Shown here: positions 485-28,482 of the stretch, piece by piece | Numbering within the stretch: the stretch's first letter is position 1 | Layout of the letters: each line of letters begins with the position of its first letter | Assembly (NCBI GenBank): GCA_007376395.1 | Contig: VMGE01000001.1 | Coordinates: forward strand, 89,635 to 153,634 | Length of the DNA: 64,000 nucleotides | Direction of reading: 5' to 3' | Origin: Microgenomates group bacterium Gr01-1014_5 | GTDB lineage: Bacteria > Patescibacteriota > Microgenomatia > UBA8517 > UBA10165 | Made by a program: the position numbers and the translations under genes | The notes under the pieces: model-generated | Told to the model about the DNA's origin: nothing | Databases searched by the model: none | Seen by the model: only the letters and a program-made list of their open reading frames with translations

Positions 485-1783
485 TTATACTGATTTAGTT
501 TGAGCTAGTTCAGCTTCAACAGTTAGTAGTCTGTTATACTTTGCTGTCCTTTCACCCCGCGCTGGTGCGCCAAATTTTACAAAATCTGCTTTTACCCCAA
601 CTGCAAAATCAGCAATATACCAGTCGTTAGTTTCTCCGGAACGGTGCGAAACTATTACTTTCCATCCGGCTTCACGGGACATGCGGATAACTTCTAGAGT
701 TTCTGTTATCGTACCTATTTGATTAGGTTTGACTAAAATTGCGTTACACGATTTCTGTTCAATTGCTTTTTTTACTCTTTCAGGATTGGTAACGAGTAAA
801 TCATCACCAACAATTAATATTTGTTGACCGTATTTTTCTGTTAGCAGCTTCCAACCTTCCCAGTCTTCTTCCTGTAAAGGATCTTCCAAAAGGGTTAATT
901 TATATTCCTTGGTTATTTCTTCAAAGTAATCTATCAGGTTTGTAGAACTTAGCGAATTTGAACGATCTCTAATGGTGTACGCACCATCTTTAAAAATAAT
1001 ATTTGCCGCCACATCGAGTCCAAGAAAAAAATCAGAACCAATTTGATATTGAGCGTTCCCAATCGCTTCAAGATTAATCGCCAAAGCGTCTGCGTTGGTA
1101 AAAAGATTCGGCGCGTATCCCCCTTCGTCGCCAACTGAATGAATCGCTCCGCGTTTAATTAAAGATTCGCGGATAAGATAATAAATCTCTGTAGCACCGC
1201 GCAATGCCTCGCTGTAAGGTTTGCTGGTTGCAGGAACAACGAAAAATTCCTGGAAATCAAGATTCCCAGCTCCGTGCAATCCCCCATTAATCATGTTGAA
1301 AATAGGTGTGGGGATTTTTGTTCCTAAATTTTCTTTTGCGGCTCCGGCTGTTGTTGCCAACTTAAAAACCCATTGATAAAGAGACATGTTGGAAGCAAGT
1401 GCTCCTGCTTTATTCACAGTCTGCGAAACAGCAAGAACTGCGTTTGCCCCTAACCGGCTTTTATTTTTACTGCCGTCGGTTTCGATTAATTTTTTATCAA
1501 TTTCCGCTTGTTTTACCGGATCCATACCCACTATTGCTGGTCCAAGCACCTGGTTTACGTTATCTACTGCTTTTAGCACACCTTTTCCGGCAAACCTTTT
1601 TTCGTCACCATCTCTCAACTCCAAAGCTTCAAATTTTCCCACAGAAGCGCCTGACGGAATAGAAGAAACAGCAACTTGACCGGTATCAAGCTGGACTACT
1701 GCTTCAATTGTCGGATAAGCACGGCTATCAAGGATTTCGCGTGCCCATATTCGTGATATTTTTGCCATGTTTGTATCAAACAC
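485..1783 (-). CDS. eno: enolase (phosphopyruvate hydratase)
   Basis: 432 aa. Enolase signature region ...VSHRSGETNDWYIADFAVG... and length are typical. Confidence 0.95.
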   Translation of the reverse strand: MFDTNMAKISRIWAREILDSRAYPTIEAVVQLDTGQVAVSSIPSGASVGKFEALELRDGDEKRFAGKGVLKAVDNVNQVLGPAIVGMDPVKQAEIDKKLIETDGSKNKSRLGANAVLAVSQTVNKAGALASNMSLYQWVFKLATTAGAAKENLGTKIPTPIFNMINGGLHGAGNLDFQEFFVVPATSKPYSEALRGATEIYYLIRESLIKRGAIHSVGDEGGYAPNLFTNADALAINLEAIGNAQYQIGSDFFLGLDVAANIIFKDGAYTIRDRSNSLSSTNLIDYFEEITKEYKLTLLEDPLQEEDWEGWKLLTEKYGQQILIVGDDLLVTNPERVKKAIEQKSCNAILVKPNQIGTITETLEVIRMSREAGWKVIVSHRSGETNDWYIADFAVGVKADFVKFGAPARGERTAKYNRLLTVEAELAQTKSV

Positions 1784-1831
1784 AAGGTTCTGTCCGCAGG
1801 ACAGGTTCTTATAATTTTTACTTCTTACTTA

Positions 1832-4051
1832 TTACTTGTTACTTTTTTCTGCCTCGTATATTACTTTTTGTACTCTGCCTAAAGAATCAGAACTGACAGA
1901 AATACTGCCAATACCCAAGCCAACTAGCTTCTCAATCAGTGTATCATAGACAGAGGCAGCCGAGCCGCAAATAGAAGTTTCGATTTTGTATTTTTTACAA
2001 GCTTTAACAACCTTTTCTAGAGCCCAGAATACTGCGGGGCTTAATTCGTTATACGCCGCCCTAACGTCATTATTATCCCGGTCTGTACCTAAAAGTAACA
2101 TTGTTAGGTCATTAGATCCAAACGAAACTCCGTCAATTCCTGTTCTTAGAAAATCTTCAATCATAATTACATTAATCGGCAATTCGATCATCATCCATAA
2201 TTTAAAACTGGCTCCGCGGTATAAACCTGCGGCGGCCATAATTCTTTTTACATGCAATAATTCTTCTGGCGAGCGGACATAAGGAATCATCATGTGTAAG
2301 TTTTTGTATTTTTCGCGGACGCTGCGCACGGCGGCAAGTTCAAGTTCAAACACCTCAGGGTCTGCGATGTAGCGGAAAGCGCCTCTAAAACCGAGCATGG
2401 GGTTGTCTTCTTCCGGCTCGTATGTTTTCCCTCCCTGCAAATTTCTATATTCGTTTGATTTAAAATCAGTTGCTCTATAAATTACCGGACGCGGGTTAAA
2501 CGCCAAACAAAACTTTTCAATTCCCTCTTTGAGTTTATCTACATATTCTTTTTGTCTTCCTTGCGCAATAACATGACGCGGATGCACCCCAAACTCAGAA
2601 ATCATAAACTCTGCACGTAATAAACCTATTCCAGCCGAAGGAAGTTTTGCTGCCTCTTTTGCTTCTTCGGGTTCAGCAAGGTTCAGGTAAATTTTAGTGA
2701 CAGTTTTAATTTCCTGATTCGGTTTAATTTCCACTTCCAGCTGCTTTTCTTGTTTTTGTTCAGTTTTCCAAGTACTTTCAGTAACTTCACCGTTATTTCC
2801 GTTGAGTGTAACCACCACGCCATCTTTGAGTTTTCTTGTTGCGTTGTCTACTCCAACAACACATGGTATCCCGAGCTCCCGCGTAATAAGCGCGGCATGA
2901 GAAGTGACTCCGCCTTGGTTTGTTACAACTCCTCCAGCAAGCTTAAAAAATGGTATTAGATCAGGAGTTATTTTTTCAAAAACCAGAATCTCTCCTTTTT
3001 TTACTTTTGACAAATCTTTTCTAGATTTAATAATCCTAACATGACCTTTGACTATTCCTGGACTCGCCCCTTGACCTTTTAGTAAAACAGCTTTTGGCTT
3101 GCGGCTTTCAATTGCCAGCTGGTTGCTGTCTGCCATCTGCTGACTGGTTGTTGTTACCGGGCGTGCATGTAAAATATAAAATTGACCGTGAGAAAAGGCC
3201 CACTCAATATCCTGAGGAAAATAATAGTGGGCATGCACCATTTGTAAAATTTTAGCTAAACTTGTAATCTGGTCGACGGTAAGTTTTTGCTTTTTTTGTT
3301 TGCGTGCTGATACCCTTTTAGTGTGTACTGTGTTGCCTGTAAGCACGAGCTGGTATTTTTGGGGCGAGACAGAAATACTTTCTATTTTTAACGAATGTCT
3401 TTCTACTAAATACTTATCAGGAGAAATTTGACCAGAAGTTAAAAGTTCTCCTTGTCCCCAAACGGCTTCAATAAACACTCTGTGTTTATTTCCGTCAGTT
3501 GGATCAATCGTAAAAGCAACACCCGCAGACTCTGCTTCCACCATCTTTTGCACAATAATCGCCACGCCAGCTCCAGTTGACCAGTATTTTTTAACAGTCT
3601 CCAATAAACTGGCTTCTCCTTGAATATTTAGGGAAGTATTTAAATGCCCAAGCGCGTTGGATTTTGCGCTATCTTGACTAACCAGTGATGGACGGACTGC
3701 GACATGTGCTTGTTTAAAAAGTCCTCCTAGTTTGCCGTATGCTTCTAAAATCTCCTCTTTAAGCTCTTTAGGGAAGTTTGCTTTTTGAATAAGTCTTGAG
3801 AAATTACTTGAGGCAGACTGCGTCTCTTTAATATTTTCTTTGTTTACAGTTTTCGCTATGTCTCTGAGAGTTTTATTTAGGTTATTTTGCTCAATAAAAT
3901 CCTCAAAAGCGCGAGGGCTAATCACAAAGCCTTGAGGAATAGGAAAACCTAATTGCGCCATTTCTGAGAGGCTGACAGCTTTCGGGCCTACTTCCTGAGC
4001 GTTATCACTCTCAATTTCTTCAAATCCAAAAATGTACTTAAGTTTAGACAT
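1832..4051 (-). CDS. ppsA: phosphoenolpyruvate synthase / pyruvate,water dikinase family (PEP-utilising enzyme)
   Basis: 739 aa. Phospho-His mobile-domain motif GGVTSHAALITRELGIPCVVG (compare E. coli PpsA [21 protein letters not shown]) and a C-terminal PEP-utilising TIM-barrel region (GSNDLTM). Assignment to PpsA rather than PPDK is by motif similarity and length only. Confidence 0.7.
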   Translation of the reverse strand: MSKLKYIFGFEEIESDNAQEVGPKAVSLSEMAQLGFPIPQGFVISPRAFEDFIEQNNLNKTLRDIAKTVNKENIKETQSASSNFSRLIQKANFPKELKEEILEAYGKLGGLFKQAHVAVRPSLVSQDSAKSNALGHLNTSLNIQGEASLLETVKKYWSTGAGVAIIVQKMVEAESAGVAFTIDPTDGNKHRVFIEAVWGQGELLTSGQISPDKYLVERHSLKIESISVSPQKYQLVLTGNTVHTKRVSARKQKKQKLTVDQITSLAKILQMVHAHYYFPQDIEWAFSHGQFYILHARPVTTTSQQMADSNQLAIESRKPKAVLLKGQGASPGIVKGHVRIIKSRKDLSKVKKGEILVFEKITPDLIPFFKLAGGVVTNQGGVTSHAALITRELGIPCVVGVDNATRKLKDGVVVTLNGNNGEVTESTWKTEQKQEKQLEVEIKPNQEIKTVTKIYLNLAEPEEAKEAAKLPSAGIGLLRAEFMISEFGVHPRHVIAQGRQKEYVDKLKEGIEKFCLAFNPRPVIYRATDFKSNEYRNLQGGKTYEPEEDNPMLGFRGAFRYIADPEVFELELAAVRSVREKYKNLHMMIPYVRSPEELLHVKRIMAAAGLYRGASFKLWMMIELPINVIMIEDFLRTGIDGVSFGSNDLTMLLLGTDRDNNDVRAAYNELSPAVFWALEKVVKACKKYKIETSICGSAASVYDTLIEKLVGLGIGSISVSSDSLGRVQKVIYEAEKSNK

Positions 4052-4140
4052 GGGACAGTAGTAATATCATTTTAGGCTAAGCGAATCCAAATTTCTACTA
4101 ATTTGCATCATACATGAGATAGCAGTATATTAGCGGGAGT

Positions 4141-4668
4141 ATGGCCATAGGTCCCAGTAAAGAACAAGATTCACTTTTCTATTTTGAATCAGAAGTTAGC
4201 TCAATGCCCTTTTTTTCAGTAAGAAACAGATTTCTTCAAGCCACAGATGACGCGTATCGACGAGCATGTGCGAGGAGATTAGCACAACTAGTAGAAAATG
4301 ATCGCTACGCGCGTTCTTGGCTGGAGGATTTTACTGGCGGCGCAAGAGCACTGGTAACCGATTCTGAAAGTTTGGTGCTATTACTTGCTCCATACAATAC
4401 AAATGCTTCTCGTCAAGAAATTTCCACCCTTTACAGTTTATTCGCGAGTTATACCCGAAAAGTAGATTCAAAAAAATTAATTGCTATTGCTCAAATGGGA
4501 AGTATTTTTTCAAAATGGCAAGATCACCTACTTCCCGCTCAACGTTTTGAGATTGCAGAGAGGCTAGGGAGGATAGTGCTTTTAAACCAAAAAGAGCTCT
4601 TTGATACTCCTGATATTACTGCTTCCATGCGTGAGGCAACAAGGAAGCTTATGGGTGTAGCCTACTAA
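4141..4668 (+). CDS. hypothetical protein (175 aa); one of very few plus-strand genes in the left half
   Basis: ORF only; no motif recognised. Confidence 0.4.
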   Translation: MAIGPSKEQDSLFYFESEVSSMPFFSVRNRFLQATDDAYRRACARRLAQLVENDRYARSWLEDFTGGARALVTDSESLVLLLAPYNTNASRQEISTLYSLFASYTRKVDSKKLIAIAQMGSIFSKWQDHLLPAQRFEIAERLGRIVLLNQKELFDTPDITASMREATRKLMGVAY

Positions 4669-4702
4669 TTTACTTGGTTTCCGTTCAAAATAATTAACAA
4701 CT

Positions 4703-4768
4703 AAATTAGCCTCAAAAGGTGAGACCACTTCGGGGCTCAGGGTCTATGACCTGCGAAGCTAATTTTTT
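4703..4768. terminator. putative bidirectional terminator between convergent genes
   Basis: AAATTAGC ... GCTAATTT 8-bp outer stem encloses a GC-rich inner region (ccacttcggggc). A T6 run follows on the plus strand and a T3 run on the minus strand. It lies between the stops of 4141..4668 (+) and 4773..5759 (-). Confidence 0.35.
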
Positions 4769-4772
4769 ACAT

Positions 4773-5759
4773 CTAACCTAATTTTGCTTTGAAGTAGTCG
4801 ACGGTGGAAATACTAATCGTATCTTCGTCATATTCTAAGCCCAGGTAGGCCGTGACCAGACTTGAGAAAAGAAGCGTTTGTATGCTTTGAGTAAATTGAT
4901 CTTCTTGATCAGTGCTCCAACTTAACACTTCCCATCCATTTTTTTCTAATATTTCTTGTGTTATTTTAAATCGCTCTAATATTCTTTCCGGGTAGTGTTT
5001 TCCTAAAAAAATAGCCACAGCTGGAATTTTTGGATGTTTTAAGCCCTCCAGTAAATGGTGATTTGCTTCAGGAAGAGAATAGTATGCAGAAAAAGATTTG
5101 GCAGTTTCATTTAATTGATTGGCAAAGATATGAGCATTTCCTACTAAGTAGTCTGATGCGAAAATAACCGGAAACTTTCCCGTTAATTTTTTAGCAATAT
5201 CTTGTGCATCAGATTTTATTTGCTCAAGATTATCTTCTAAAATATTTATCGCATTTTCCACAACATCTTCTGTGTCGTTCCCGTTAAACAGACCTAAATT
5301 GTGGAAAATTGCAGAGACCCCAAAGATATTATAACCAATTCCCATCCTTGGCTGTTTTGTTGAGTTAAATTTTGGATCGAAAATATAAGCATGAATATTA
5401 TTTGAGTTAAGCCGTTCTGCAAGTTTTCCGCCACTAGTTATTCCAATTATTTTACAACCTTTTTCTATTGCATCTTTTGCGCAAGATAAAACTTCTTCTG
5501 TATTTCCTGAATATGAAGCTAAAACAACTAAAGATTCTTCACTCGCAAAGCTGGGAAGAAAATAATTATTATTAATTACCATTGGAACTTTAACAGAACC
5601 GCTAACTTGAAGTGTGTGTGCTCCAAGCGCTGACCCTCCCATACCGCAAATGACAATATTTTTAATATCCCAATCTTGCGGAAGGTCAACCGTTAAAGCT
5701 TCTCTCCACGCCTGTCTACACTGTTTTGGTAATTCTAATATTGAAGAAATTATGTCCAT
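4773..5759 (-). CDS. SIS-domain bifunctional phosphoglucose/phosphomannose isomerase family
   Basis: 328 aa. ICGMGGSALGAHTL nucleotide/sugar-phosphate-binding SIS motif and a second SIS-like half. Sits among glycolytic genes (gpmI, eno, ppsA). Confidence 0.55.
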   Translation of the reverse strand: MDIISSILELPKQCRQAWREALTVDLPQDWDIKNIVICGMGGSALGAHTLQVSGSVKVPMVINNNYFLPSFASEESLVVLASYSGNTEEVLSCAKDAIEKGCKIIGITSGGKLAERLNSNNIHAYIFDPKFNSTKQPRMGIGYNIFGVSAIFHNLGLFNGNDTEDVVENAINILEDNLEQIKSDAQDIAKKLTGKFPVIFASDYLVGNAHIFANQLNETAKSFSAYYSLPEANHHLLEGLKHPKIPAVAIFLGKHYPERILERFKITQEILEKNGWEVLSWSTDQEDQFTQSIQTLLFSSLVTAYLGLEYDEDTISISTVDYFKAKLG

Positions 5760-5763
5760 TTTT

Positions 5764-5820
5764 ATAATCCGATTGGTTCTATAATCCGATTGGTTCTATA
5801 ATCCGATTGGTTCTATAATA
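5764..5820. repeat. three perfect tandem copies of the 17-bp unit ATAATCCGATTGGTTCT plus a 6-nt partial copy
   Basis: Read directly: copies at 5764-5780, 5781-5797 and 5798-5814, then ATAATA. The array covers the last two codons and stop (TAG, reverse complement of 5813-5815) of the HAD gene. It ends 5 nt before the PGI/PMI ATG (reverse complement of 5757-5759). Confidence 0.9.
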
Positions 5821-6586
5821 ACTCTAAAAGTCTGTCAACAACTTCTTCTCCTCCCAAATTAAGTTTGCCTTCGGTGTGATAATGCGCTTCCATGTGTGTG
5901 GGGTCGGTTGTCACCCCAATTCCTGCTATCTTTACCATAGGCGTGTCGTTCGGGTCATTGCCGATTGCCATAGTTTCTTCAATTGTAATTCCTAAACGGT
6001 CGCACAAAAAGCGCAAACCCGAACCTTTGTTAAAACGCCGTAAATAAATGTCATAAGCCTCATTACTCACCCAATTAACAGCAATTTCTTCTTCAGGGTC
6101 GTGCTTTTTAACAATCTCTTCAATTTGCGAGTCTGGTTGGCGACAATGGACACTAATAATAAATTGCTTCGGCTCAAAGCCTTTGATGTTTTCATTTTTA
6201 CGGCTGTATTCAACCAGGTCTGTGCGGATATCTTCGAGTTTTTCTAATTCTTCTTTTGTTAGCGCTGCTTGTTGTAAAATCTCTCCGTTAATTAAAGTAA
6301 GCAATCCGTTTTCTCCCTGTAAGCTGGCGTTTTCCCATAGTACGGGGCTAAACATGTAGTTTAAATAGAGCAGATTACGACCGGAAGAAAAATTAACTTT
6401 AAAGCTCTTTTTAAGTTTTCCTATCTTAACCAGCATTTCCGGTGAAATAACTTTCGACTTAACTGTTAACACCCCGTCTTTTTCCAGTACTTGGGTTCCG
6501 CGCTCAATTGCTACGCCGTCGGCATCAAAGGAGATAAGTTTGATATTTTCTATGTCGCGGGCGATAAGCTGGGAGATAGGTTCCAT
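5813..6586 (-). CDS. HAD-IIB (Cof-type) sugar-phosphate phosphatase family
   Basis: 257 aa. N-terminal FDADGV (DxDG motif I) and C-terminal AIGNDPNDTPM (motif IV). Confidence 0.6.
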   Translation of the reverse strand: MEPISQLIARDIENIKLISFDADGVAIERGTQVLEKDGVLTVKSKVISPEMLVKIGKLKKSFKVNFSSGRNLLYLNYMFSPVLWENASLQGENGLLTLINGEILQQAALTKEELEKLEDIRTDLVEYSRKNENIKGFEPKQFIISVHCRQPDSQIEEIVKKHDPEEEIAVNWVSNEAYDIYLRRFNKGSGLRFLCDRLGITIEETMAIGNDPNDTPMVKIAGIGVTTDPTHMEAHYHTEGKLNLGGEEVVDRLLELL

Positions 6587-6653
6587 AAGTTTATACTATG
6601 CTGGCTACAATAACATGTCAATACAAGACAGCATATAAAATGCGTAGCGTTTT

Positions 6654-7340
6654 CTATAGATAGGCAACCAGAAGATCAAGTGAAGCTTCTAAATTTTCAG
6701 GAAGCTGGGATCTTTTATTTTTACGGTCTAGTTCGAGGAGTTGCTTGTGAATTCTCAATAGTTTGTCCGACGTAAAATTTTTTGCCTGTTTTTCAAGATT
6801 CCGTTTTTGCCAATCTGGTAATTTTAAGTTTTTAGAATCTGTTAGTAAACAGTAGAGAAGTCTTATTTGTCTGGAAAGCATAATTACCAACATATCCGGA
6901 GAGTTTTCTCTCTTAGCCTTTTGTAACAGCCGCAGTGAGTGTTTTGCATTTCCGGGGATAAAAGAGTCTAGAAAATTAAACAGGATTTTAGGAATCTTAA
7001 ACTCCTCTATTTGTAAATATTTTGCTAAAGAACGCGCGGTTTGCGGTGCAAGAGTTTTCGATTCCCAAAAAAGGAAAGCTGTCTGCGGGTTTGGTTTATC
7101 CAGCAATTCTTTAACTAATTGAACTGCCTTTTTATTGTTTGAAAAATAGTTTTCAACTACTAAAAAGTTCCCTGAGCCAAACATTGAAGCAGTACCCGAT
7201 ATAGTATTTAGATCAATTTTATCTTCCGGTCCGTCTAGTCTAACTATTTCCCAGCCCTGTGTTTCTGCCTGAGAGATAAGTAAAGATAATTTTTTTCTTG
7301 ATTCTGGATGGTTTTCGCCGTGCAATAAATAAGAGTTCAT
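6654..7340 (-). CDS. holA: DNA polymerase III delta subunit-like (HolA), short form
   Basis: 228 aa. Starts MNSYLLHGEN as HolA proteins typically do, with a C-terminal helical region (LSRQIRLLYCLL...). Low-complexity similarity only. Confidence 0.45.
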   Translation of the reverse strand: MNSYLLHGENHPESRKKLSLLISQAETQGWEIVRLDGPEDKIDLNTISGTASMFGSGNFLVVENYFSNNKKAVQLVKELLDKPNPQTAFLFWESKTLAPQTARSLAKYLQIEEFKIPKILFNFLDSFIPGNAKHSLRLLQKAKRENSPDMLVIMLSRQIRLLYCLLTDSKNLKLPDWQKRNLEKQAKNFTSDKLLRIHKQLLELDRKNKRSQLPENLEASLDLLVAYL

Positions 7341-7786
7341 TTTGTTTTTTTAGTCCGTAACATATTAACGTAAACTTCCCGCACTACTCTATCATTCACT
7401 CCCCCTTTATGCCGGTGGGGGACAAGTGCACCGGAAAACGATTTGGGTATATGTAAAAGCTCGTGGATTATAACCATTTCCTGCTGTTCAGAAGTGAGTC
7501 TGTCAAACTTTTCCGAGACAGCCTCAATTACATAAGCAGGCTCTATCTTTAGTGCTTGCTGGAAAATTCTTCCCAACCCCCAAATTCTGGCATATGCTCT
7601 AGTTTTTGCTCCAGTTGAAACGTAACAATAAACTCTCTTTGGATTTATATGCGTAAGGTTACAGGAGATTATGAGGTTAGAAATTCTTTTTTCTAGTTCT
7701 ACAGAATCAAGCCATAAAAGCTGTTCTCTTTTTTTAACCCTTCGGACTTTTCGTACTTTAGGAAACCTTAAAAACTTCAGCGCCAT
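7337..7786 (-). CDS. predicted HExxH zinc metallopeptidase-like protein
   Basis: 149 aa with VIIHELLHIPKSFSGALVPH (HExxH plus a downstream His). Confidence 0.4.
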   Translation of the reverse strand: MALKFLRFPKVRKVRRVKKREQLLWLDSVELEKRISNLIISCNLTHINPKRVYCYVSTGAKTRAYARIWGLGRIFQQALKIEPAYVIEAVSEKFDRLTSEQQEMVIIHELLHIPKSFSGALVPHRHKGGVNDRVVREVYVNMLRTKKTK

Positions 7787-8021
7787 CTTTTATTTGTTCT
7801 GTTGTCTTTAAGCCGACTTCGTCACCGGATTTAGCTTCTTCAACAGACTCATGTTCCACTTGCATTGACTCAACTTCTTGTTCAAAAAGATCCTCTCCTC
7901 CTCGAACAAAACGGATACGGTCGCCAACTTTCAACGAGCCAGTCAAGGCAAGTACAGCAACCCCTATTTTATCGTAGAAGTGTGTAATTTTACCTACTTT
8001 TGTGTCTGCCATAATCTTCAC
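7758..8021 (-). CDS. small beta-barrel protein resembling EF-Tu/IF-2 domain II
   Basis: 87 aa. The G-rich beta-strand pattern KVGDRIRFVRGGEDLFEQEVESMQVEHESVEEAKSGDEVGLK is typical of translation-GTPase domain-2 barrels. Overlaps the upstream gene by 29 nt. Confidence 0.35.
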   Translation of the reverse strand: MKIMADTKVGKITHFYDKIGVAVLALTGSLKVGDRIRFVRGGEDLFEQEVESMQVEHESVEEAKSGDEVGLKTTEQIKDGAEVFKVS

Positions 8022-8044
8022 CCCCTGTTTACTGAGTTTTTTTG

Positions 8045-8530
8045 TTATTTACATTTTTTAATGTGACACATGGCGATAGCGATAGCATCGGCAACGTTAT
8101 CAAAATGTGTCTTTTTGTTTTTCTCGGCTTCTAACCCAAACGTATCTTTGATTACTTTTTGCATCACTTTTTTATCAGCCCTACCGTGTCCTCCAACTGC
8201 TAATTTTATTTGTCCCGGGGCATATTCAGCAACAGGAACTCCTAAATCGGCTGCAGCTAAAAGTAATACTCCTTGTGCCTGGCTAACCCTAATAACCGTT
8301 TTTTTATTAATAAAGAAAAATATTCTCTCGATGGCAACAACTGTTGGTTTGTGTTTTTTTAAAAGAGCAGAAGTTTGTTTATAAATTTCCACTAAACGAG
8401 AACCAGGGTGACCGTCTTTATCCGTTTCAATGAGTCCGTGTGCTAAGAGTTCGGCAACGCCCTTACCGTTTAACCCAACCAAACCATACCCTGTAGTCGC
8501 CGTTCCCGGATCTATCCCTAATACGAGCAT
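8045..8530 (-). CDS. ruvC: Holliday junction resolvase RuvC
   Basis: MLVLGIDPGTATTGYGLV... RNase-H-fold RuvC N-terminus; 161 aa. Confidence 0.9.
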   Translation of the reverse strand: MLVLGIDPGTATTGYGLVGLNGKGVAELLAHGLIETDKDGHPGSRLVEIYKQTSALLKKHKPTVVAIERIFFFINKKTVIRVSQAQGVLLLAAADLGVPVAEYAPGQIKLAVGGHGRADKKVMQKVIKDTFGLEAEKNKKTHFDNVADAIAIAMCHIKKCK

Positions 8531-8554
8531 TATCCCATTCTACCACACGCACTC

Positions 8555-8908
8555 TTAAGTTACATTTTGTATTAACCTTGCCTCTTGTATGCGATTGTTT
8601 GCTACTTCCACTGCCACCACGTCAATCCTGAGAAGGTCTGGAGTGTTTGGGTGTAATAATTTGTAATATTCTCCGGTCTTTGTAATCGATCTTATTTTCC
8701 AATAGTTTACTGCTTCTTCAGGTAACCCGAATTTTCGGTTCCAGCGAGTTTTTACTTCAACAAAAACCAGGGTATCACCGTCTATAGCGACCAAATCGAT
8801 CTCTCCAAATTTGCTGCGGAAATTTCTGTCGATTATTTTATAACCTGCTTTGGTTAGAAGTTTTAGCGCAGTCTGTTCACCAAGCCTGCCTGCTGTAACT
8901 GTGGACAT
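8555..8908 (-). CDS. yraN: YraN/UPF0102 family endonuclease
   Basis: GEIDLVAIDGDTLVFVEVKTR PD-(D/E)xK core; 117 aa. Confidence 0.85.
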   Translation of the reverse strand: MSTVTAGRLGEQTALKLLTKAGYKIIDRNFRSKFGEIDLVAIDGDTLVFVEVKTRWNRKFGLPEEAVNYWKIRSITKTGEYYKLLHPNTPDLLRIDVVAVEVANNRIQEARLIQNVT

Positions 8909-9312
8909 TATTTTTTCTTGGCTTTGCGTTTACTCCGATCCGATCGGAGTTTAGTCTGGGACTGGACTGATTTTTTCTTGGTAATATCCGCCAACTCACG
9001 GGAAGTTTTGGTACGAATATAATAAAGCTTTGCGCGTCTCACTCTGCCTTTTGCACGTACTTCAACTTTTTCGATTAAGGGTGAGGCTAAAGGAAAAATG
9101 CGCTCCACTCCTATCCCGCCAGCTCCAATTCTGCGCACTGTAAAGCTTTTGTTTGGACCAATTCCGCGCACAGCTATAACCATGCCTTCGAAAACTTGGG
9201 TCCTAATCTTTTGGTCTTCTTGGATCTTTTGATAAACGCGGACAAGGTCGCCAATATGAAATTCACTACTGTTATGGGTTGCAAATAATGCCATTGACAC
9301 TAATTGTACCAA
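8908..9312 (-). CDS. rplS: 50S ribosomal protein L19
   Basis: [14 protein letters not shown]...[26 protein letters not shown]...[16 protein letters not shown] is an L19 signature. The true start is probably the internal Met (MALFATH...) about 18 nt downstream. Confidence 0.9.
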
Positions 9313-20144: not shown

Positions 20145-20582
20145 CTAAAGATCGTACACATCTTTCGGCGTATGCATTGTTCCCAAACATTTAGGGCTCC
20201 CGCAAAAGCATTTGTGTTCGCACTTTGAGCAAGTGTCTTGCTGTGGATACCTGTAAGAAATTGTTAACTCTTCTCCCGGCTGAATATCGCAAATTGTAAC
20301 AAATTTAACAACTTTTTTCGTAATATCCATTGTGCAATTCGGGTCACAGGAATGATTTAATAAATGTACCCCAATTTGTGTTTTATCGGCTACAATTCCG
20401 ACTTCATCAGTTAAATACATTAAATATTCGTAGTTTTGTGGATCGACTTTATGATACGGAAGATACTTTCCGGAATACTCTCCTATCACTGTTCCGGATT
20501 TGATAGATTGAAGTGCAAAAACACCCCGTCCTTTACCTTTTGTTTGAAGAATTTCAAATGAACTTCGTGGAATAGAAAACAC
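20145..20582 (-). CDS. SET-domain protein (putative protein-lysine methyltransferase) with Cys-rich post-SET tail
   Basis: GRGVFA...GTVIGEYSG..., NHSCDPNC and ELTISY motifs, plus C-terminal CSKCEHKCFCGSPKC. Confidence 0.8.
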   Translation of the reverse strand: MFSIPRSSFEILQTKGKGRGVFALQSIKSGTVIGEYSGKYLPYHKVDPQNYEYLMYLTDEVGIVADKTQIGVHLLNHSCDPNCTMDITKKVVKFVTICDIQPGEELTISYRYPQQDTCSKCEHKCFCGSPKCLGTMHTPKDVYDL

Positions 20583-25023: not shown

Positions 25024-26104
25024 TGATATTGCCTATTCCACCGCTTGTTCTCGAAGGCGTAATGTTTGCTGGATTTACAACAAAGAGCTCGCCCTCCTTT
25101 AGTCCTGACTTTACTTCGATGTCTGTATCCCCAACAAAACCTGTTTCGATTTTTCGCGCAACAATATTCCCGTTTGTTTGAACATAAACTTCGTTTGCTT
25201 CGCTATAAACCTCATCTTTACTAACCAGGGCGTCTTGGGAAACAGTTAATATATTTTTCGCTTCTTTAGTAATAATTTCAGCTTGACCCGTAATTCCGGG
25301 AACAAACGTCATTTCAGGATTACCTAAATTTACTCTTACAACTATTACGGTTGAACCGCTTGAAGTAGTCTTTGTAACCGGAATAATTTTATCAATTTTT
25401 CCGTTAAAAACTCTGTCTCCCGAGGAGTTTAGCGTTACTTTTACTTCTTGGTCTAATTTAACTTTGTCTATATCTGCTTCGTCAATTTCTGCGTCAAAAT
25501 AAATTGTGCTTTTATCTACAATTTGGATAATTGTGTCAGAAGAAGCAACACTTGCTCCTGTAATTGCCCCAACCTTTGTAACAATTCCGTTAATGGGAGT
25601 AGTAAGAGTCGATTCTCTTAAAGCCCTCTCGGCATCGCGTACGTTATCAAACGCATTATCTTTCGCGACTTCCGCCGTTGTTCTGGTTTGTCTCTGAGTT
25701 AATGTTTCGTCAGAACTGTGCCCTTTGACGTCATCCAGGATTTTATCCAAAATTGCCTGCTTGTCCCTTAGTGTATTTTTAGCCTGTTGAAGTGAAATTG
25801 ATAACTCCTGGGTATCAAGTCCTGCAAGAGCTCGATTTTTAGTTACATTATCTCCCTCTTTCACACTTATATATTTTAAAATTCCACTACTTTGAAAATG
25901 CAGATTTGCTGTATCTTTTCCTTGAAGCGTACCGGAAGAAGCAACGGTTTGTTTTATATCCTGAACCTTTACAATTCCTGTTTCAACCGCAACTTTTTGC
26001 GAGTTTCGTCCAAATAAAAACCAAACACCAAACAAGACGGCAATGACGAGTAGTATTTGATACCGGTGCTTTAGAGATAAGATTTTTTTAAGGGCTTTTT
26101 TCAC
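24962..26104 (-). CDS. HlyD/MacA-family periplasmic adaptor (membrane fusion protein)
   Basis: 380 aa. N-terminal TM, coiled-coil, beta-barrel/lipoyl-like regions and Gly-rich C-terminus. Forms an adaptor-ATPase-permease operon. Confidence 0.75.
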   Translation of the reverse strand: MKKALKKILSLKHRYQILLVIAVLFGVWFLFGRNSQKVAVETGIVKVQDIKQTVASSGTLQGKDTANLHFQSSGILKYISVKEGDNVTKNRALAGLDTQELSISLQQAKNTLRDKQAILDKILDDVKGHSSDETLTQRQTRTTAEVAKDNAFDNVRDAERALRESTLTTPINGIVTKVGAITGASVASSDTIIQIVDKSTIYFDAEIDEADIDKVKLDQEVKVTLNSSGDRVFNGKIDKIIPVTKTTSSGSTVIVVRVNLGNPEMTFVPGITGQAEIITKEAKNILTVSQDALVSKDEVYSEANEVYVQTNGNIVARKIETGFVGDTDIEVKSGLKEGELFVVNPANITPSRTSGGIGNIIGRLFGVQRGSGGGFRGNSR

Positions 26105-26123
26105 TAAGCTCAGATTATACCAC

Positions 26124-26153
26124 TTTGAGCCTAATTTTGCGCTGTTGTATAAT
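26124..26153 (+). promoter_or_regulatory. sigma70-like promoter for the tRNA-Gly transcript
   Basis: TTGAGC (26124-26129), 17-nt spacer, TATAAT (26148-26153). Confidence 0.55.
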
Positions 26154-26184
26154 ATAAGAAGTTTACTTCGAGTGTTAACGAGAA

Positions 26185-26227
26185 GCGGGATTAGTTGAAC
26201 GGCTCAACAGAACCGACTTTATCCCGT
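26185..26227 (+). other. tRNA-like 5' module (7-nt acceptor strand GCGGGAT plus D-arm-like GTTG-AACGGCT-CAAC) upstream of tRNA-Gly
   Basis: GCGGGAT is complementary to ATCCCGC at 26350-26356, and also locally to ATCCCGT at 26221-26227. The adjoining ATCCCGTTAA (26221-26230) pairs with TTAACGGGA (26312-26320) across the tRNA-Gly. Confidence 0.5.
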
Positions 26228-26230
26228 TAA

Positions 26231-26302
26231 GCGGTGGTAGTTCAGTGGTAGAACGTCTCCTTCCCAAGGAGAAGGTCGCCGGTTCAAATCCGGTCCACCG
26301 CT
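26231..26302 (+). tRNA. tRNA-Gly (CCC)
   Basis: GCGGTGGTAGTTCAGTGGTAGAACGTCTCCTTCCCAAGGAGAAGGTCGCCGGTTCAAATCCGGTCCACCGCT. Anticodon loop TTCCCAA, discriminator U. Confidence 0.9.
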
Positions 26303-26332
26303 CAAAGAGTCTTAACGGGACAAGGTAGAGAA

Positions 26333-26357
26333 ACGGGTTCGACTCCCGTATCCCGCT
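26333..26357 (+). other. tRNA-like 3' module: perfect T-arm (ACGGG-TTCGACT-CCCGT) plus acceptor strand ATCCCGC and discriminator T; no anticodon arm
   Basis: The sequence differs from the tRNA-Gly 3' half, so it is not an att-site duplicate of that tRNA. It pairs with the 26185 module. Confidence 0.5.
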
Positions 26358-26417
26358 CTGAGCGTTACGAAGAGAGGATATGATCCGAAGCGATTATCCC
26401 GCTCCAAATTTTTAATA

Positions 26418-26957
26418 ATGGCTGAATCTACCGACAAAGACGAACGAATAAACCCTGCGATTACCTATGCTGTAAAAGCCGGGAAAGAGATCACTCCTGA
26501 AGATATAGCTGGAATAGAAAATATGGCTGAAGAAGCAGTCACCACATTTAACACGCTTAAACACCAAGGAAAAATACCCAACAGTGTTGATTTTGGACCG
26601 ACTACACACATCTTCGCATACAAAGCGTTAAAAAACCCAAACAGCGACTTTTGTGCTGCCTTTGCCTACGATAACGGACACGTCGTCGGATATAGAATTA
26701 TCCCAATTAAAAAAGAGACTAGAGGCATCTCTAGTAGCTATCTTGGAGTAGCCATAACCCACCAACGCCGTGGAATAGCTTCAAAATTAGTTACGGAAAC
26801 TCATAAAAAGCTAGTTGAAATGGGGATACGCTCCTATGAGACCATTGCCGTTGCAGAAGTTTTAGAACTTTACAAAAAAGCAGGCGTTGAGTTTACAGTC
26901 CTTGAACCTCCCGGGTCTTACCACACTGAAGGGTATAAAATTAACGTAACCCTTTAA
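26418..26957 (+). CDS. GNAT-family N-acetyltransferase
   Basis: VAITHQRRGIASKLV is a GNAT motif A-like acetyl-CoA loop; 179 aa. Confidence 0.55.
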   Translation: MAESTDKDERINPAITYAVKAGKEITPEDIAGIENMAEEAVTTFNTLKHQGKIPNSVDFGPTTHIFAYKALKNPNSDFCAAFAYDNGHVVGYRIIPIKKETRGISSSYLGVAITHQRRGIASKLVTETHKKLVEMGIRSYETIAVAEVLELYKKAGVEFTVLEPPGSYHTEGYKINVTL

Positions 26958-27996: not shown

Positions 27997-28482
27997 ATGA
28001 AAGAATATTTCAGCCTCGGTACTTTCCTCAAAACCTACAAAGATGATGAAGCTTGTTTAGACCACATAAAAGAAATTAAATATCCAGCTGGTGTTTTTTG
28101 TGAGAAATGCCAAAAGATAACTAATTTTACCAAAATTAAAGATAGACCTGTTTATCAATGGTCTTGCGGATATCAGATATCTCCTCTAGCCGGAACTATC
28201 TTTGCAAAAACTACTACACCCTTACAGTTTTGGTTCTATGCAGTATTTATCATGACCCAAACTCGTTCTGGAGTTTCTGCTAAGCAATTACAAAGAGAGC
28301 TTGGTGTAACTTACAAAACATCCTGGAGAATGTTTAAACAAATAAGAATACTCATGGCAAATGCGAATAAAGGTGGGGAACCTTTAGATGGGATTGTTGA
28401 AATAGATGAAACATATATAGGAGGAAGGATAAAACGTAAAGGCGTTTGGGCTGGAGGTATAACAATAGGAAATATCAGGTAA
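27997..28482 (+). pseudogene. N-terminal fragment of an IS1595/ISXO2-like transposase (Zn-ribbon plus beginning of catalytic domain); truncated
   Basis: Cys/His-rich Zn-ribbon (CEKCQK...CGYQ) and VEIDETYIGG motif typical of IS1595-family transposases. It stops at 161 aa (full length is about 300 aa) and no DDE core follows. Confidence 0.5.

Follow-up and report, generated by a model that had tools for sequence, protein, structure and literature searches.

In a stretch of 64,000 nucleotides from Microgenomates group bacterium Gr01-1014_5 (333-kb contig VMGE01000001.1, positions 89,635 to 153,634; "the window" below), we found a complete glycine transfer RNA (tRNA) gene, tRNA-Gly(CCC), lying between the two separated halves of a second tRNA-Gly(CCC) gene, all within 173 nt (26185-26357, window numbering throughout). 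We regard it as probable that the outer gene is the resident tRNA-Gly(CCC) gene of this locus, that it was broken in its anticodon loop by an insert of about 103 to 106 bp (26215/26218-26320), and that the inner tRNA carried by the insert is its functional replacement, read from the resident promoter. tRNA genes are classic landing sites for mobile DNA, and the newcomer normally rebuilds the gene that it cuts. Here, the cut gene stays broken, and inside it there is a complete tRNA with the same anticodon and almost nothing else. Below, "resident" denotes the outer tRNA gene, and comparison loci are designated by L-numbers.

Layout and folding of the nested genes

The nested locus and its immediate flanks contain the following elements.

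26125-26153 (+): promoter-like site, TTGAGC-17 nt-TATAAT, upstream of the outer 5' half
26185-26214 (+): outer (resident) tRNA-Gly 5' half, 26/30 positions identical to the uninterrupted tRNA-Gly(CCC) of L074
26185-26191 (+): outer acceptor strand GCGGGAT, from the sequence
26194-26208 (+): outer D-arm GTTG-AACGGCT-CAAC, from the sequence
26210-26214 (+): remnant of the outer anticodon-stem 5' strand, GAACC, from the stem table
26215-26217 (+): GAC in place of loop positions 32 to 35 (TTCC), by comparison with L074, L005, and the other nested loci
26218-26230 (+): left arm of the insert, TTTA plus TCCCGTTAA (TCCCGTTAA at 26222-26230), an inverted repeat adjoining G1 of the inner tRNA and kept as TTTAYCCCGTTAA in 7/7 lineages
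26231-26302 (+): inner, intact tRNA-Gly(CCC) with discriminator T at 26302 and no encoded CCA, by ARAGORN and Rfam RF00005
26303-26311 (+): unpaired spacer CAAAGAGTC between the inner tRNA and the right arm, from the sequence and fold
26312-26320 (+): right arm of the insert, TTAACGGGA, complement of 26222-26230, from the fold and a repeat search
26321-26357 (+): outer (resident) tRNA-Gly 3' half, 36/37 positions identical to the L074 tRNA
26321-26323 (+): CAA, corresponding to C36 A37 A38 of the old anticodon loop, by comparison with L074
within 26321-26357 (+): anticodon-stem 3' strand GGTAG (CAA-GGTAG at 26321-26328), then variable AGAA, from the stem table
26333-26349 (+): outer T-arm ACGGG-TTCGACT-CCCGT, from the sequence
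26350-26356 (+): outer acceptor strand ATCCCGC, followed by discriminator T at 26357, from the sequence
26358-26405 (+): remnant of a further leader-plus-tRNA-Gly unit, from a repeat search and local alignment to the L005 leader and tRNA start

Read from 5' to 3', positions 26185 to 26217 are GCGGGAT TA GTTG-AACGGCT-CAAC A GAACC GAC, followed by TTTA-TCCCGTTAA and the inner tRNA; the order after the inner tRNA is CAAAGAGTC TTAACGGGA CAA GGTAG AGAA ACGGG-TTCGACT-CCCGT ATCCCGC T. The two outer pieces (26185-26214 and 26321-26357) pair into a tRNA fold in which only the anticodon loop is missing. An earlier, sequence-only reading of this region had listed GCGGGAT, the D-arm, the T-arm, ATCCCGC plus T, and a 9-bp pairing around the inner tRNA, and all of these are present at the coordinates that it gave. 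It had also stated that the outer molecule has no anticodon arm, which is right only in part: both stem strands can be recognized, as can the 3' side of the loop, and the remnant GAACC / CAA-GGTAG keeps 3/5 stem pairs.

The inner tRNA-Gly(CCC) matched Rfam RF00005 with 73.3 bits (E = 3.8e-14; gathering score, 29), and ARAGORN agreed, giving the anticodon CCC. The inverted repeat consists of 9 bp (26222-26230 / 26312-26320) and, when extended, of 16 nt at 88% complementarity. The unconstrained minimum free energy (MFE) fold of positions 26175 to 26370 was a nested double cloverleaf of -72.9 kcal/mol (z = -3.45; 0/200 shuffles as stable). Its elements are the acceptor stem, D-arm, and T-arm of the outer gene and a helix of 14 bp, with a single mismatch, that directly abuts the inner tRNA. 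The long-range pairings proposed from the letters are part of the MFE structure, and positions 26185 to 26357 folded alone gave the same nested structure.

ARAGORN made no call for the outer tRNA, with or without its intron mode, or when the insert was simply deleted. A permissive-threshold Rfam search of positions 26050 to 26500 returned nothing credible beyond tRNA, only sub-threshold noise; the model tmRNA_permuted scored 17.5 bits against a gathering score of 47, mostly over the two T-arms, so that the region does not qualify as a transfer-messenger RNA. The three other tRNA genes of the window (Asp, Thr, and Val) have no comparable flanks.

Identity of the outer gene and the insertion site

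We fetched orthologous loci via homologues of HlyD and PolX; LysM was too divergent to align as a synteny probe, and PolX was used instead. One of these loci, L074 (PolX 67% identical), carries an uninterrupted tRNA-Gly(CCC), GCGGGAT TA GTTG AGCGGTT CAAC A CTACC TTCCCAA GGTAG AGAG ACGGG TTCGACT CCCGT ATCCCGC T, which is identical to the outer pieces of the window at 62/67 positions (26/30 in the 5' piece and 36/37 in the 3' piece). The two sequences that are separated in the window are thus contiguous in L074, where TTCC takes the place of GAC plus the insert. The closest relative of the window organism (L005/6/7) has an HlyD that is 91% identical and shares the promoter and leader with the window. 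In L005, an ordinary, uninterrupted tRNA-Gly(CCC) occupies this site, with the acceptor stem GCGGGAT/ATCCCGC, as in the window, and U73. When TTCC was swapped in for the insert, ARAGORN called the outer sequence as tRNA-Gly(CCC), in the window and in L023 alike.

Because the outer halves match the uninterrupted gene of L074 and an ordinary gene occupies the site in L005, sequence homology identifies them as the resident tRNA-Gly(CCC) gene of the locus. The split falls at about anticodon position 35/36, and the inner and outer genes share both isotype and anticodon. Disruption of a tRNA gene by another tRNA, one of the possibilities in the sequence-only reading, is thereby borne out, with the insert located within the anticodon loop.

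Recurrence of the junction in related bacteria

We looked for the junction with one pattern scan of a genome collection and one of a metagenome collection. The same junction (TTTAYCCCGTTAA + GCG...) occurred in six other Microgenomates-like lineages: L010, fetched via HlyD, and, from the scans, L013, L014, L017/L019, L018/20/21/22, and L023. Every match of these scans lay in a tRNA-Gly-like 5' half, past the anticodon-stem 5' strand and 3 to 4 variable bases. These bases read GAC, GGC, GTAC, GGAC, or AGAC, and the pristine TTCC is found only in L017. The nested arrangement is thus real and recurrent.

The state of the locus differs between lineages. L014 and L023 are nested and complete, L013 is nested and decayed, L017 (= L019) is nested and ends at the contig end, and L018 (= L020 = L021 = L022) has the outer 5' half only. 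Within the group nearer to the window, the window and L010 are nested, L005, L074, and L075 are uninterrupted, and L072 has an inner-type tRNA alone. L010 (HlyD 85%) has a 5' half of the L005 type, followed by GGC TTTTACCCCGTTAA and an inner tRNA-Gly(CCC). The nested loci are syntenic (PolX, tRNA-Asp, LysM, tRNA-Gly, then tRNA-Thr and tRNA-Val), and PolX identity among their hosts, and between these and the window, is only 45 to 53%. Mapped onto the relationships of the hosts, nested and uninterrupted states are scattered.

Two of these loci come from bins named "uncultured Gammaproteobacteria" (L013 and L014). The PolX and LysM of L014 and the LysM-type upstream reading frame of L013 match those of the Microgenomates window and its relatives, and the bins are, by these matches, probably contaminated or misnamed. 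The closest PolX relative of the window (L072, 74%) has its lone inner-type tRNA-Gly(CCC) at 5801-5875 (-), behind a TATAAT of its own and with no outer halves; the D-loop of this tRNA is missing the GG motif, and its T stem has one broken pair. It may be what remains once the outer gene has been lost, or a copy in decay.

Discordant histories of the insert and the resident gene

We compared how far the inner and outer genes diverge between the same pairs of loci. Between L014 and L023, the inner tRNA differs at 2/71 positions and the outer gene at about 22/56, while between the window and L014 the inner tRNA differs at 13/71 and the outer gene at 4/56. In L013 and L017, the arm and the inner tRNA are identical over the shared part, and about one-third of the outer 5' positions differ. 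In addition, the outer gene of the window resembles that of L074, and a different allele is carried by its close relatives L005 and L010. Given these discordant differences, the insert and the gene around it have been reassorted, and the arms plus the inner tRNA behave as a separable cassette.

Reassortment could have come about by repeated insertion into different resident alleles or by allele exchange with variable conversion tracts. With less certainty, the cassette may move or recombine between the tRNA-Gly(CCC) alleles of related bacteria. As to its origin, it could be what little is left of an integrating element that broke its tRNA target and brought a replacement of the same isotype, or a tiny nonautonomous element. 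We put forward only tentatively that the unit of about 105 bp is an undescribed miniature mobile cassette of the ultra-small bacteria of the Candidate Phyla Radiation (CPR), specific for the anticodon loop of the host tRNA-Gly(CCC), acting in a selfish "kill and replace" manner, by which its own copy becomes indispensable, and spreading by site-specific insertion or homing-like allele exchange. A separate candidate origin, a tandem array with deletions, was rejected: the 3' arm region resembles the leader at 12/14 positions, but this likeness was not seen in L014 or L023.

Proposed expression of the inner tRNA

The promoter-like site at 26125-26153 was the only one detected on the + strand ahead of the inner tRNA, and there is no other between it and the inner tRNA. 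The TATAAT and the leader are conserved before tRNA-Gly in L005, L010, and L075. We infer that the resident gene would no longer be the source of a decoding tRNA and that the inner gene would take over this role. A single transcript from the resident promoter would run from the leader through the outer 5' half and the inner tRNA to the outer 3' half. The 5' end of the inner tRNA would be generated by RNase P cleavage at 26231, the 9-nt unpaired spacer would give access for trimming at the 3' side, and CCA would be added after trimming, because none is encoded.

The outer halves, joined by the repeat and the old acceptor stem, would act as a structured leader and trailer. Once released, the outer pieces would be by-products, which might fold in a tRNA-like manner and might be trimmed on their own account at 26185 and 26357. 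The suggestion that the flanks form a long processing stem can be kept as a possible secondary role of the inverted repeat, but it leaves the D- and T-arms unexplained.

State of the outer gene

We tabulated the outer stems by hand; MAFFT had matched the uninterrupted tRNAs to the inner gene and misplaced the outer D-arm. In the window and L023, the outer acceptor, D, and T stems are kept, and L023 also has 5/5 anticodon-stem pairs. Pairs 27-43 and 28-42 are lost in the window and in L014, and L014 has in addition a 58-nt GC-rich insertion in the outer D-loop (1964-2021; ACTCGCCTTGCCGAAGCCTCGGCGAAGCGCAGG...). L013 has lost the right arm and the T-arm. In the L018 family, the outer 3' half was found on neither strand within up to 6.4 kb. 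Three of the five lineages that can be judged therefore have lesions incompatible with a tRNA-like L-shape, a comparative pattern that argues for the outer gene being a decaying relic.

Related GC-rich strings (..GCCGAAGCTTTAGCGAAG..) also occur upstream of the outer gene in L014 and L018, and these may belong to a small repeat family of these genomes.

Surroundings of the locus

Upstream of the nested gene, on the opposite strand, is an HlyD/MacAB efflux operon. Downstream are an orphan GNAT gene, an oxidoreductase, an IS1595-type fragment, a NYN gene, and tRNA-Thr. In the remnant at 26358-26405, CTGAGCGTTACGAAG resembles a leader (compare CTGAGCGTAACGAAGT in the leader of L005), AGAGGAT.. 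(AGAGGATATGATCCG) is a degenerate 5' start, and TATCCCGCTC repeats the tRNA 3' end; the score of the remnant's local alignment to the L005 leader and tRNA start was reached in 1/500 shuffles. On this similarity, the remnant is evidence of repeated tRNA gene turnover at the site. The idea of a relic attachment site, raised in the sequence-only reading, suits this separate downstream remnant better than it suits the nested structure.

A further apparent tRNA relic is found in L074, where a GCGGGAT ... ATCCC mini-hairpin (8985-9035) lies behind a TATAAT, about 77 nt upstream of the uninterrupted tRNA-Gly. The tRNA-Gly of L074 is inverted relative to LysM, and a 7-kb defense block (1570-8969; a Type ISP restriction enzyme, toxin-antitoxin pairs, PIN, and PD-(D/E)XK) lies between it and the conserved oxidoreductase. 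The genes 3' of the tRNA also differ between the window and L005. Because of the remnant at 26358-26405, the relic and island of L074, and these differing 3' genes, the locus is clearly a recombination hotspot.

The GNAT-fold protein (26418-26957, +, 179 amino acids) matched only itself among 5.8 billion clustered proteins, and its gene is absent from all related loci, including the other nested ones. A role for this gene as a partner of the nested structure (a tRNA-linked acyltransferase or a toxin) was dropped on account of its being an orphan and absent at the other nested loci. The segment from the GNAT gene to tRNA-Thr (30086) has a lower G+C content (0.35 at 28 to 30 kb), contains the IS1595-type zinc-ribbon fragment (27997-28482), and looks like accessory DNA. 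On the other side of the locus, a 145-amino-acid SET-domain protein (20145-20582, -) adjoins tRNA-Asp and is conserved there in L072 and L075 as well; methyltransferases with a SET domain are uncommon among bacteria.

Evidence against replacement and alternative explanations

Several observations weigh against a resident gene broken and replaced by an incoming one. No integrase or transposase adjoins the window copy, whose neighbors are the HlyD/MacAB operon and the GNAT gene, and none is found at the compact copies. There is no clear target-site duplication or core common to both junctions: TTAA flanks both sides in the window but belongs to the repeat, and its counterparts are TTTA in L014 and TTCA in L023. 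In the window, the arm motif occurs only at this locus, with other matches at chance level, and no copy of the cassette turned up on its own, in phage contigs, or in a different target. As for the outer gene, all stems but the anticodon stem are intact in the window and L023, as are the G18G19 and TTCGA motifs, which is more order than would be expected of an old pseudogene. The outer halves of the window and L014 are very alike, yet their hosts have PolX proteins of about 50% identity, and this likeness needs recent transfer or selection. Finally, the repeat arms of L014 have changed on both sides (TCCCG/CGGGA to CCCCG/CGGGG, U:A to C:G), and the loop remnant xxAC of most lineages pairs with G40 U41, extending the clamp helix; together, these hint at selection on pairing.

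Some of the same features bear on a reading to which we give a slim chance, namely, that selection keeps the outer fold, which after release of the inner tRNA would be a two-piece, anticodon-less tRNA-like RNA with a glycine-type acceptor end (G1-C72, C2-G71, G3-C70, and U73). Such an RNA could be a processing scaffold for the inner tRNA, a nondecoding glycine carrier, or a decoy. Besides the intact stems and loop motifs of the window and L023 and the two-sided change of the arms, it is favored by the nested double cloverleaf being the MFE structure, by the acceptor of L013 still pairing (GCGGAAT/ATTCCGC) despite the loss of its T-arm, by G-U pairs in the sense strand only, and by the window and L014 being closer in their outer halves than in their inner tRNAs. 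However, lesions that break the L-shape are present in three of the five lineages with a judgeable 3' side (L014, L013, and L018), and outer-gene differences that preserve pairing are unusable as evidence of selection because matching uninterrupted alleles exist (L074 and L005) and the changes may predate the insertion. Moreover, the spacer ATCGC of L014 and L023 can compete with the inner acceptor stem, unlike a folding aid, and the downstream orphan GNAT gene is not linked to the structure in other lineages. A third reading, which we hold to be possible but rather unlikely, takes the locus for the fossil of a site-specific integrating element (a phage or island, as in tRNA-dependent lysogeny), with the arms as inverted core sites of attP, the anticodon stem as attB, and everything deleted save the essential tRNA. 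The symmetric anticodon stem-loop is a classic integrase site, the isotype of the cargo tRNA is that of the broken gene, inverted-repeat arms flank the cargo, and the locus is a recombination hotspot with an extra tRNA relic (26358-26405) and variable neighbor genes. In the L018 family, furthermore, a 518-amino-acid large serine recombinase (Resolvase + Recombinase + Zn_ribbon_recom; L021 reverse complement) directly follows the inner tRNA. This enzyme, however, has inverted repeats of its own on either side, each of about 100 bp (about 650-750 and 2400-2497 in L021 reverse-complement coordinates), which start at the first base past the tRNA discriminator, and its one viral relative has no tRNA beside it; on these grounds, it looks like a secondary event. 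The predicted C terminus of the recombinase is encoded antisense to the tRNA. The arm motif and the inner-type tRNA are both absent from the viral collection, no shared core is evident at the two junctions, and no compact copy has an integrase.

The insert might instead be an intron whose splicing yields two tRNAs, the inner one and a religated outer tRNA-Gly, as in the tRNA-containing intervening sequence considered in the sequence-only reading. Its position, 35/36, is that of group I introns in tRNA genes of Patescibacteria, and excision from L017 would restore a perfect TTCC+CAA loop. We nevertheless find splicing very improbable: Rfam gave no group I or II signal at E values of up to 10, the insert is just about 105 nt long and mostly tRNA, and the intron mode of ARAGORN found no outer tRNA. 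Excision would leave a 6-nt loop (GAC or GGC + CAA) in L014, L010, and the window, where no anticodon would be usable; the loop of L023 and L018 would carry G33 and the anticodon ACC; and the anticodon stem of the window has lost two pairs. The junctions have no evident bulge-helix-bulge motif: the folds there, judged by inspection and with no dedicated motif search, show a continuous helix with one A-C mismatch rather than two 3-nt bulges around a 4-bp helix. Coincidental complementarity or an assembly chimera of two tRNA-Gly genes has next to no probability. It is true that three contigs of the same population from other assemblies break within the region (L002, L003, and L004, which begin at about window positions 26202, 26277, and 26274); assemblies tend to break here, through shared tRNA k-mers or strain heterogeneity. 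Chance pairing is excluded because the outer pieces are homologous to the uninterrupted tRNA-Gly(CCC) of L074, at 62/67 positions, and an assembly artifact is excluded because the junction recurs in assemblies made independently from other samples, the total being at least seven independent lineages and assemblies; the z score of the fold is a further point against this reading.

Relation to known systems and significance

The nearest described analogue of the arrangement is the tRNA-dependent lysogeny of actinobacteriophages, in which integration at a short core destroys a host tRNA gene and a phage tRNA of the same isotype complements the loss (Guerrero-Bustamante and Hatfull 2024, PMC10865867). 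In both cases, incoming DNA splits a host tRNA gene at or near the anticodon loop, the gene is not rebuilt, and the incoming tRNA has the same isotype, here tRNA-Gly(CCC) for both genes. In the lysogens, however, a whole prophage is integrated by a tyrosine integrase at a common core of 8 to 10 bp with arm-type sites, and the tRNA lies elsewhere in the prophage, whereas the insert described here has about 105 bp, short inverted repeats flank its tRNA, neither an integrase nor a common core was seen, and the host is a CPR bacterium. Displaced tRNA fragments are also known from the ends of genomic islands with Islander-type tDNA targets (PMC4383910 and PMC9897764). There, too, partial tRNA copies pile up through recombination, which fits 26358-26405, but the target is restored and the 3' fragment lies kilobases off as a direct repeat. 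Here, both broken halves flank a complete second gene in 173 nt, and this nesting is not explained by such islands.

Group I introns have been described at position 35/36 of tRNA genes in Patescibacteria (PMC13011429), and a preprint mentions "small structured introns" of CPR bacteria (10.1101/2025.07.03.662931, citing Castelle et al. 2018). The phylum, the anticodon-loop target, and the position are the same, but the insert lacks a ribozyme core and is itself a tRNA gene, and its excision restores no working loop in most lineages. With miniature inverted-repeat transposable elements, the insert shares its short, noncoding nature, its terminal inverted repeats (16-nt arms, 88%), and its presence in some relatives and absence in others; it differs in being a single copy with one target type, no clear target-site duplication, and an apparently functional tRNA as cargo. 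The split and permuted tRNA genes of archaea and red algae likewise have halves that are separated in the DNA and able to pair via an added helix. In those genes, an endonuclease acting on a bulge-helix-bulge and a ligase join the halves, whereas here there is no rebuildable anticodon loop and no such motif was seen. In full-text literature searches on interrupted or nested tRNA genes, we found no account of one tRNA lying within another.

The locus shows tRNA gene turnover in the reduced genomes of CPR bacteria. Annotation tools report only its inner tRNA, so that such loci are overlooked, and contigs tend to end at them. Should the outer fold prove functional, it would represent a new type of tRNA-like RNA, in two pieces and without an anticodon. 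The insert, for its part, could be the smallest case known in which a gene ensures that it is kept by taking the place of an essential gene of its host.

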